This document shows positions 29,701 through 32,700 of a DNA stretch of 64,000 nucleotides, piece after piece; position 1 is the stretch's first letter, and each line of letters opens with the position of its first letter. Made by a program: the position numbers. Where the stretch lies: the NCBI RefSeq assembly GCF_024223415.1, contig NZ_CP100500.1, one strand, 5' to 3'. The DNA comes from Escherichia coli. GTDB lineage: Bacteria > Pseudomonadota > Gammaproteobacteria > Enterobacterales > Enterobacteriaceae.

Positions 29701-32700
29701 GGTTATCCAGGCATGACGGCACACAAAAATATCTCCGGGACATACCACCTCTCTGTTGCAGACATTCTGCAGGTGGTTTACCAGGTATGTTTCAGCCCGT
29801 CCGTTGAAATCAACCAGGATGGTGTGGCTGCGCTGATTACAACACTGGATCGCCGTATCAGTGATCTATTGGATGAGATTATCCATTTTTGTGAGTTTCA
29901 GCAGAGCGCGTCGCACTGGCAGCGCGTACTTCACTGACGGCGAAAAGCCGGTTTCAGAAACACAGCTAAAACAGAAGGATTTTCAGTATGTCTTTACAGG
30001 AAGAGGAACTCGTTTCCAGTCATGCCGGGCAGCCTGAGCAGGCATCGTCGCTGCTTGATCAAATCATGGCACAGACCCGTATTCAGCCCGGTTCGGAAGG
30101 TTATGACGTTGCCCGCCAGGGTGTGACAGCCTTTATTGCCAGCATCCTGCAATCCACTGCATCTGCCGAACCGGTCAATAAACTGGCCGTGGACAGCATG
30201 ATTGCAGATATTGATGAACGCATCAGCCGCCAGATGGATGTCATCATTCATGCGCCTGCCTTTCAGCAGGTCGAGTCGTTCTGGCGCTCACTGAAAACCA
30301 TGGTGGATCGCGTTGATTTCCGTGAAAACATCAAGGTCAACGTGCTTCATGTCACCAAGCAGGAACTTCTGGAAGACTTTGAGTTTGCGCCAGAAATTAT
30401 TCAGTCCGGATTTTATAATCACGTTTATTCGTCCGGTTTCGGACAGTTTGGCGGTGAACCCATCGCTGCCGTGCTGGGCGCTTATGAGTTCAAAAATACC
30501 GCGCCTGACATGAAACTGCTGCAATACGTCAGTGCCGTGGGCGCAATGGCGCACGCACCGTTCCTGTCCTCCGTTTCCCCGGAGTTTATGGGGCTGAACT
30601 CGTGGACCGAACTGCCTAATATCAAAGATCTTTATGCCATCTTTGAAGGTCCGGCCTACACCAAATGGCGCGCCCTGCGTGACTCGGAAGATTCGCGCTA
30701 TTTAGGGCTTACGGCACCCCGCTTCCTGCTTCGCCAGCCCTATTCACCAACAGATAACCCTGTTAAGAACTTTAACTATTACGAAGATGTCAGCCAGAAC
30801 CACGAAGATTATCTGTGGGGTAATACGGCCTGGATGCTGGCATGCAATATCGCAGACAGTTTTGCCAAATACCGCTGGTGTCCAAACATTATCGGTCCGC
30901 AAAGCGGCGGCGCAGTGAAAGATCTGCCGGTGCATCTGTTCGAAACGATGGGGCAGATTCAGGCCAAAATCCCAACCGAGGTGCTGGTCACCGATCGCCG
31001 CGAATTTGAACTGGCTGAAGAGGGTTTTATCACCCTTACCATGCGTAAAGACTCTGATAATGCAGCCTTTTTCTCTGCAAACTCGGTACAAAAACCGAAG
31101 CACTTTCCGGGAAAAGATGCAGAAACCAACTATAAGCTGGGTACGCAGCTTCCTTATCTCTTCATCATCAATCGGTTAGCGCACTACATCAAGGTGTTGC
31201 AGCGTGAACAACTGGGGTCATGGAAAGAAAGGAGCGACTTAGAAAGAGAGCTTAATACCTGGATCCGTCAGTATGTTGCCGACCAGGAAAACCCGCCTGC
31301 AGACGTGCGCAGCCGCAAACCTCTGCGCGCTGCCAAAGTTGAGGTTATGGATGTAGAAGGCGAACCCGGCTGGTACCAGGTTGCGCTAAGCGTGAGACCT
31401 CATTTTAAATTTATGGGGGCAAATTTTGAGCTTTCCCTGGTTGGCCGGTTAGACAGGGAGTAACACACCATGATACCGGATCGGGAAAGAACCACAGGTT
31501 CTCTTTTTGAGCGTATGGAAGCCTCTTCGGCCAGAAACCGGCAGGGAGGCAGTATTCATTCGCTCAGGCAATCCATTCGCCAGAACCTACGAAACATTCT
31601 TAATACCCGGTCCGGTAGTTGCCGAGGTGCGCCTGAGCTGGGCATTGATGAACCGGAAGGGGCTGAAAACTTCCGCGAATCCATGAGTCGGGCCATCGAG
31701 CAATGTATAGAACGCTATGAACCCCGGATCTCACACGCTGAAGTGCAGGCAGTGGTTTCATCCGCCTCCAGCCCGCTGGATATGACGTTTCATATTACAG
31801 CCTGGGTGACATTTAACGAAACGCATGAGGTGCTTGAATTTGATATGGCACCGAATAGCAGCCAGCATTACCGGGTGGACTGACAAATGGAATTTGAAGA
31901 ACGCTATTTTCGGGAAGAACTCGATTACCTGCGCCAGCTTAGCAAGCTGCTGGCAACGGAAAAACCCCATCTGGCCCGCTTCCTGGCCGAAAAAGATGCG
32001 GATCCGGATATTGAACGCCTGCTGGAAGGGGTGGCTTTTCTTACCGGCAATCTCCGCCAGAAAATTGAGGATGAATTCCCAGAACTGACGCACGGGCTTA
32101 TTAAGATGCTATGGCCTAATTACCTGCGTCCGGTTCCGGCAATGACCCTTATTGAATATACGCCGGATATGGATAAGTCTTCTGTACCGGTGTTAATCCC
32201 CCGTAATGAGCAGTTTACAACCAACGCCGGGGAAATCAGAGTTGATGAAGTGCTGCCCTCTGATGCTAAAAAGGCTGAGCCGCCTCCCTGTACCTTCACC
32301 CTCTGCCGGGATATCTGGCTGCTGCCCGTTCGCCTGGAGCAGATTGAAAACCGCAGTACGACCCGTAATGGTGTTATCAACATCACCTTTTCGGTCGCAC
32401 CGGGAACGGACTTCCGCACGCTGGATCTGAACAAACTTCGCCTCTGGCTCGGCAATGACGACAACTATACCCGTGACCAGCTTTATTTATGGTTCTGCGA
32501 ATACTTGCAGGGTGCCGACCTGACTGTGGGTGAACAGCATATTCGCCTGCCTGAGTTTATGCTAAAAGCTGTCGGTTTTGAGCCGCAGGATGCCATGCTG
32601 CCCTGGCCGAAAAACGTCCACAGCGGCTACCGGATCCTTCAGGAGTATTTCTGTTACCCGGATGCGTTTCTCTTTTTTGATCTTTGCGGTTGTCCGGCGT

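Follow-up and report, generated by a model that had tools for sequence, protein, structure and literature searches.

How did a 74-codon open reading frame (ORF) come to lie between the two sheath genes of a type VI secretion system (T6SS), and does its product still do anything there? The question is raised by a 64,000-nucleotide (nt) stretch of Escherichia coli chromosomal DNA (contig NZ_CP100500.1 of assembly GCF_024223415.1; hereafter the window), where a T6SS cluster beside yafV carries, in the 309-nt gap between tssB and tssC, a small ORF that runs from ATG to TGA, starts 34 nt past the tssB stop and ends 50 nt ahead of the tssC start. RefSeq lists its product as the hypothetical protein WP_000123970.1. 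Of 5,426 complete E. coli genomes, about 2,260, O157:H7 among them, carry this annotation, and a literature search that included Z0263 and papers on the T6SS of enterohaemorrhagic E. coli (EHEC) found no description of it. We propose with moderate confidence that the ORF is a truncated tssC paralogue, long kept as a small protein carrying TssB-binding helices and now near-neutral and often inactivated, a reading that gives this hypothetical protein both a name and a history.

Descent of the small ORF from tssC

In a single pairwise BLASTP comparison, ORF residues 15-72 match residues 50-102 of the downstream TssC with 20 of 58 identities (34%) and E = 2e-8, and the stretch quoted in the first-pass annotation of this DNA, which had noted a resemblance to an N-terminal segment of TssC, lies inside that alignment. 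By segment, ORF residues ~11-27 align with TssC ~39-57 and residues 33-72 with TssC 63-102; the similarity ends at about TssC residue 102, with no continuation in any frame. A profile built from 12 homologues of the ORF and searched against 177,635 PDB sequences has TssC/VipB chains as all six of its best matches, always over the same segment of ~40 residues: four distinct proteins, Vibrio cholerae VipB among them, score E = 7e-6 to 7e-5, and Pseudomonas aeruginosa TssC1 scores E = 0.01. Alignment to TssC is thus significant both pairwise and by profile. The Pfam VipB profile (PF05943; 301 positions, gathering score 27 bits) matches ORF residues 40-71 with its positions 2-33 below that cut-off (E = 0.0026, 17.3 bits), and the 74-residue product, vs. 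~490 residues for TssC, has no match to PF18945. The divergence at the DNA level that the same annotation had remarked upon is real: the 40-codon core is 54% identical between the two genes, and blastn of the small ORF against tssC gives no match.

The pairwise and PDB profile results place the similarity far beyond chance and confirm, at the level of sequence, that the small ORF shares descent with tssC. Chance similarity, which the annotation had listed among its options, would mean a fortuitous likeness in a spurious ORF, and we give it next to no probability. Its case would rest on the shortness of the ORF, the sub-threshold Pfam match and the outcome of an exhaustive phmmer run with the single sequence against 1.84 billion representatives, which returned only the ORF family and repetitive false positives, with no full-length TssC at E <= 1e-3 in a database of that size; it is for this last reason that homology is demonstrated here pairwise and by profile instead. 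It is refuted not only by the BLASTP alignment and by profile matches that fall on TssC/VipB and on the same region each time, but also by a hidden Markov model (HMM) of the ORF family that scores all 70+ TssC N-termini in an order graded by relatedness, by the position of the ORF next to tssC, and by the duplicated tssC leader that precedes it.

A probable partial tandem duplication and the segment it kept

The features concerned are the following, in order along the window.
29178 to 29678, plus strand: tssB, small sheath subunit of 166 residues and upstream neighbour (Pfam T6SS_VipA, E = 2e-51; RefSeq annotation).
29679 to 29712, plus strand: tssC leader, first copy, in which the ribosome-binding region before the small ORF is degraded, AAACAGGGTTATCCAGGC; it resembles the true tssC leader CAGAAGGATTTTCAGT and the 30-nt spacers of outgroups.
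29713 to 29937, plus strand: the small ORF of 74 codons and a TGA stop, a truncated paralogue of tssC corresponding to TssC 1-6 and ~38-104 (BLASTP, Pfam, profile and AlphaFold2 model).
29752 to 29793, plus strand: ORF residues 14-27, counterpart of TssC helix H1, about residues 40-55 in the window TssC (BLASTP alignment; modelled helix 15-26; H1 as defined in PMC5807055).
29809 to 29928, plus strand: ORF residues 33-72, the conserved TssC-like core INQDGVAALITTLDRRISDLLDEIIHFCEFQQSASHWQRV, counterpart of TssC 63-102 (16 of 40 residues identical to TssC; the PDB profile matches span this segment).
29938 to 29987, plus strand: second copy of the leader, which is the functional tssC 5' leader (AAGGA at 29975-29979, 8 nt upstream of the ATG).
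29988 to 30299, plus strand: tssC codons 1-104, the parent segment and putative source of the duplication (alignments and leader comparison).
29988 to 31463, plus strand: tssC, large sheath subunit of 491 residues (Pfam VipB, E = 4e-126, and VipB_2, E = 3.5e-45; phmmer E = 3.9e-246 to V. cholerae VipB chain 5mxn_A).

We measured the tssB-tssC gap at 73 loci encoding TssC relatives, one genome per species, and found it to be ~295-315 nt only in the clusters closest to the window (TssC at least 85% identical). We refer to the Escherichia clusters as group A and to the Citrobacter-type clusters of C. youngae, Atlantibacter and Yokenella as group B; TssC of the latter is 85-89% identical to that of the window, and protein searches add Salmonella enterica and C. 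portucalensis to it. In the next relatives, Rahnella, Buttiauxella, Yersinia, Serratia and Trabulsiella (TssC 73-78% identical), the gap is ~30 nt, and since the long gap is confined to one clade the insert must be the derived state. The sequence immediately upstream of the small ORF (CAGGGAGATTATCCTGGTATG in group B, AAACAGGGTTATCCAGGCATG in the window) resembles the true tssC leader (CAGAAGGATTTTCAGTATG) as well as the outgroup spacers, and the group B ORFs begin MSL or MGL, where TssC begins MSL. The ORF-family HMM reaches 37.5-42 bits on TssC N-termini from the ORF-bearing clade and at most 35 bits on every other TssC. Finally, the ORFs of groups A and B have the same start, stop and frame, with just one in-frame indel of 12 nt separating them, and they share seven derived residues, the position of the stop and the leader downstream.

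The ancient partial duplication of tssC that had been raised as one possible origin is therefore supported: the clade-restricted insert, the duplicated ribosome-binding site and start codon, the best HMM scores on TssC of its own clade and the shared derived residues all point to a tandem duplication, in the ancestor of one enterobacterial T6SS lineage, that would have copied the tssC ribosome-binding site, start codon and first ~104 codons (~340 bp). In the simplest history the upstream copy would then have lost codons ~7-37 and come to end at a newly gained stop. The lost codons include SLLDQIMAQ, which we take to be the counterpart of the ClpV-binding helix of V. cholerae VipB. Sequence comparison further suggests a single event before the split of groups A and B, without later gene conversion, because the stop, the leader and the seven derived residues are common to both and neither ORF shows affinity to its own tssC. 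Independent duplications in each subclade, or gene conversion from tssC, either of which could mimic the low deep-branch rate ratio described below, were rejected on these grounds: neither ORF type is closer to its own tssC, be it at all sites or at third positions, and the common stop, leader and derived residues again speak against independent origins. That the fragment came from a foreign T6SS cluster was likewise rejected, as the best HMM scores fall on TssC of the resident clade.

The retained segment has a defined structural counterpart. In P. aeruginosa TssC1, helices E39-E54 (H1) and S66-M86 form a three-helix bundle, sheath domain 3, with the TssB1 helix D117-L133 (PMC5807055), and TssB's C-terminal helix is needed for TssC binding (PMC3840085). 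Given these helix positions and the offset of about +1 between the numbering of the window TssC and that of TssC1, the ORF covers both TssC domain-3 helices. An AlphaFold2 model from a 12-sequence alignment shows two helices, at residues 15-26 and 35-73, with a mean predicted local distance difference test score (pLDDT) of 82; a Foldseek search of this model against the PDB gave no match with E below 4, the two-helix model being too small to inform. The motif that the ORF retains is D-x-R-I-x-x-x-[LM]-D-x-I-I-H-x-x-x-[FY]-Q-Q-x-x-x-x-W. The product cannot be a sheath subunit; it would consist of only the two N-terminal TssC helices that pack on the TssB C-terminal helix in assembled sheaths. 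Judged by homology, its likeliest activity would be that of a free mimic of the TssC N-terminus, which when made would bind the TssB helix and so hold TssB or damp sheath assembly. Should it do so, the peptide would offer a natural means of probing or inhibiting the interface between TssB and TssC.

Past constraint, present decay and the alternatives

Between groups A and B the synonymous sites of the ORF are saturated (proportion of synonymous differences, pS, 0.65-0.77; synonymous divergence, dS, at least 1.5), with a proportion of nonsynonymous differences (pN) of 0.30-0.38. The ratio pN/pS is 0.47 in the real frame vs. 0.92 and 1.03 in the two shifted frames of the same alignments, and it is low in both halves of the ORF. 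A likelihood-ratio test under codon models (12 sequences) rejects a nonsynonymous-to-synonymous rate ratio (omega, dN/dS) of 1 on the branch between the groups (p = 2.5e-5), and omega on this deep branch is 0.20-0.28 when the dS of the branch is limited to about the level found in the flanking genes. In the core, ORF residues 33-72, 12 of the 16 residues identical to TssC are also kept in the Citrobacter-type copies, where 6.4 would be expected from independent decay of the ancestral residues in the two subclades (p = 3e-4). Within the groups, by contrast, omega is 1.7 (A) and 0.67 (B), neither value different from 1 and both above 0.3 (p = 2.5e-5 for Escherichia, 4.6e-4 for the Citrobacter type), whereas tssB and tssC stay at 0.01-0.18 in all comparisons of the same genome pairs; variable sites are spread evenly over the three codon positions (11/12/6 in Escherichia, 25/22/23 in the Citrobacter type). 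Taken together, the alignments point to protein-level purifying selection in the past that is not detectable now.

Broken copies are found across the clade. The ORF of C. youngae has a nonsense codon and has lost its stop, that of Yokenella a frameshift and a nonsense codon, and that of the E. albertii type strain has lost its start and suffered several frameshifts and an 18-nt deletion; in a third lineage, represented by two long metagenome contigs (L091 and L144), the ORF is frameshifted. Null alleles within E. coli include Y11*, loss of the start codon by a change from ATG to ACG, a double frameshift and a clean deletion by which tssB is joined to the leader. In the last of these (L099, metagenome contig PPYE01660072.1) the tssB stop and the whole small ORF are gone and TssB, ending ...KEIG, continues in the leader frame (SLTAKSRFQKHS*), with the tssC leader and start intact despite the deletion. 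A further nonsense allele, W69* (TGG to TGA; L078:2538-2744), removes an invariant residue and is carried by 39 complete E. coli genomes, or 14% of the 275 with the second major spacer haplotype, and it also occurs on recombinant haplotypes (L175). Clusters with a nonsense or frameshifted ORF keep tssB and tssC intact. E. coli has two main spacer haplotypes ~6% apart, with 1,969 genomes at least 99% identical to the window and 284 at 90-95% (window vs. L076/L077/L078); mosaics between them exist, and the range of tssC dS between the same strains, 0.015 to 0.10, is a sign of recombination inside the cluster. In metagenomes, a scan with a general pattern yielded 88 loci, and one with a Citrobacter-type leader pattern found nothing; since apparent disruption is also high for tssB and tssC in the low-coverage assemblies, these were used to list alleles and not to estimate frequencies. 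The question of whether the ORF is conserved in homologous clusters, which the first-pass annotation had proposed as a check, accordingly has a divided answer: it is intact in most E. coli, some E. albertii, Salmonella, C. portucalensis and Atlantibacter, and broken in the lineages listed above.

Several unusual alleles were recorded alongside. Protein P0033 (7 contigs, NCBI and Logan) is a chimeric 100-residue ORF in which small-ORF codons 1-26 are in frame with the last ~74 residues of TssC, which implies that some E. coli have a deletion allele lacking most of tssC. In proteins P0006, P0011, P0016 and P0025, variants of the ORF, a frameshift is restored 10-15 codons further on and the C-terminal TssC-like part stays in frame, which could reflect sequencing error combined with ascertainment or a greater importance of that part. 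The Citrobacter-type tssC at L002:1767-2653 matches the window TssC only to residue 219 (called ORF of 234 residues) and is followed by a YafT-family gene; by its sequence this locus appears to be a decayed T6SS remnant that still carries an intact small ORF. The tssC at L084:711-2183 is called as two separate ORFs, of 223 and 208 residues, in a single Logan assembly; the Citrobacter-type cluster is otherwise intact, and the split reflects either an assembly error or a pseudogene.

The history we favour reads as follows. For most of the time since the duplication the copy would have been translated, and it was held under moderate purifying selection; in the present Escherichia and Citrobacter-type clusters it evolves at a near-neutral rate and is inactivated repeatedly, as the alignments and null alleles show. 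Because of this near-neutral evolution and repeated inactivation, the T6SS would now be able to do without the ORF, which would be turning into a pseudogene, a course that is apparent in its sequence evolution and probable for its function. The small sheath paralogue that had been suggested is thus borne out for the deep branch, where purifying selection acted, and not for the present, with its drift and null alleles. Several considerations weigh against our interpretation. The cluster is silenced by H-NS in the laboratory and silent in vitro (PMC13141884), and the Shine-Dalgarno (SD)-like GGG/AGG of the ORF is weak and poorly spaced (-3.8 kcal/mol, vs. -5.5 kcal/mol at 7 nt for the SD of tssC). 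The deep-branch omega rests on saturated synonymous sites, so that its value is imprecise though below 1, and most group B sequences come from a protein search, a bias toward intact copies. Binding to TssB, for its part, is predicted from homology and published structures. Among the 59 complete E. coli genomes sampled that have a full-length match, moreover, 58 carry an intact ORF and one carries W69*, and continuing weak selection would be compatible with so nearly universal an intact frame.

The intact frame also speaks for a still-working accessory protein, a TssC mimic that would bind the TssB C-terminal helix or domain 3 and tune sheath assembly or TssB stability, under selection weak enough to leave slightly deleterious variants unpurged. 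The start, stop and frame are kept across clusters with saturated synonymous sites, deep-branch omega is below 1, the most conserved TssC motif residues persist in both subclades and the two-helix model is confident; however, within-clade omega above 0.3 and indistinguishable from 1, set against flanking genes far lower at the same divergence, the lack of any third-position excess among variable sites, and independent nulls in at least three species-level lineages besides several E. coli alleles, W69* included, make this unlikely, and we see only a modest chance that the ORF is still an active accessory factor. Its most specific form, an unrecognised T6SS accessory microprotein that presents the TssC domain-3 helices on their own, free of the ClpV-binding region, and, through its hold on the TssB C-terminal helix, serves as holdase or brake in sheath polymerisation in the Escherichia/Citrobacter/Salmonella T6SS-2 lineage, seems doubtful to us; were it true, null alleles would be so frequent because strains adjust their T6SS activity individually. 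At the opposite extreme, the ORF could be a pure relic that never functioned, its frame having stayed open through chance and its linkage to neighbouring essential genes. Accidental partial tandem duplications are frequent, and the neutral-like evolution within clades, the many broken copies and the weak SD would all fit; a dS of at least 1.5 would nevertheless have randomised a neutral sequence, yet nonsynonymous differences remain at about half the synonymous level and in the real frame only, the likelihood-ratio test rejects neutrality on the deep branch, both subclades share start, stop and frame, and the independent origins or gene conversion that could imitate this pattern are unsupported. 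This explanation is improbable and already disfavoured.

A further alternative, to which we assign a slim chance, holds that the spacer and its translation matter and the peptide does not, either because ribosomes on the 309-nt gap prevent Rho-dependent polarity on tssC or because the gap contains a regulatory leader (CsrA, internal promoter). In its favour is the 50-nt tssC leader, which shows 0 differences at 48 positions among four group B clusters (L002, L004, L005 and L006), where neighbouring synonymous sites differ by 17-29%; a wider sample has a few single changes, group B and E. coli differ at 10 of 48 positions, and conservation over the last ~120 nt of the spacer matches that of coding DNA. 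To judge by this conservation, the leader may be a cis-regulatory element for tssC. One paper (PMC13141884) discusses AAGGA as a possible CsrA motif and summarises earlier reports in which CsrA represses tssC and not tssB, together with conflicting ones on tssB-tssC co-transcription; the ORF lies in this operon, for which both transcription and post-transcriptional control across the tssB-tssC interval are under dispute, and the spacer is where differences in tssB and tssC expression would arise. That the peptide drifts within clades while its frame stays mostly open would also agree. What tells against this alternative is that on the deep branch it is the amino-acid sequence that is constrained, and only as read in the real frame, the 3' half too having saturated synonymous sites; that clusters with a broken ORF retain sound sheath genes; and that a 30-nt spacer suffices in close relatives.

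When the spacer was examined for cis-acting ALTERNATIVES by promoter, terminator, RNA fold and C/G composition, the scan found no sigma-70-like promoter or intrinsic terminator inside it, and composition revealed only a weak C-rich patch at 29680-29760, with no convincing rut site or strong C-rich, G-poor tract. The RNA fold across the ORF 3' end, the leader and the tssC start is no more stable than that of shuffled sequence (minimum free energy z = -0.73); in the alignment fold no variation occurs in pairs that involve the SD, and each of the three compensatory pairs coincides with the one split between subclades A and B, so that a conserved RNA structure linking the ORF to tssC was rejected. 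Translational coupling of the sheath genes through the ORF, which the first-pass annotation had entertained, finds no backing in such a structure or in the distances on either side of the ORF: the 50 nt between its stop and the tssC start are too many for termination-reinitiation and make classical coupling unlikely. Anyone engineering or deleting within this spacer should heed both the translated-looking tssC fragment and the highly conserved leader.

The cluster and comparison with known systems

The plus-strand genes of the cluster run, by RefSeq annotation, tssB, hypothetical protein, tssC, tssE, tssF, tssG, tagH, tssJ, tssK, tssL, tssH, vasI, tssA, tssM, and the minus-strand part encodes Rhs, VgrG and Hcp. 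The same lineage is named T6SS-2 in EHEC (PMC7216683), and its gene order is V. cholerae-like. A 1-kb query around the small ORF is present in ~2,270 of the 5,426 complete E. coli genomes and 100% identical in many. An E. coli-type cluster 99% identical to the window also appears on a contig labelled as a Citrobacter sp. metagenome-assembled genome (L003, DXKH01000078.1), which is probably a mis-binned E. coli contig or the product of very recent transfer.

Compared with canonical TssC/VipB proteins (PF05943 plus PF18945), the small ORF descends from tssC and keeps the segment of residues ~38-102 with both domain-3 helices; missing are the beta-sheets of domains 1 and 2, the gp25-like domain at the C-terminus and, at the N-terminus, the region with which V. 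cholerae VipB binds ClpV. TagJ/HsiE1 is a T6SS accessory sheath regulator that binds TssB; the ORF is not known to be related in sequence to it or to other T6SS accessory proteins. If active, it would resemble microprotein decoys in presenting an isolated interaction module, the TssC domain-3 helices, to TssB. It also resembles the relics of partial tandem duplications: it adjoins its parent on the same strand, has a duplicated ribosome-binding site, is absent from outgroups, and in extant lineages evolves at a near-neutral rate with frequent disrupted alleles. It differs from a relic that never functioned in being an intact ORF under protein-level purifying selection across saturated synonymous divergence. 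The ORF is thus a new instance of a familiar evolutionary by-product, a modest curiosity and not a new system, and a clean example of a partial gene duplicate long retained as a small protein and now decaying.

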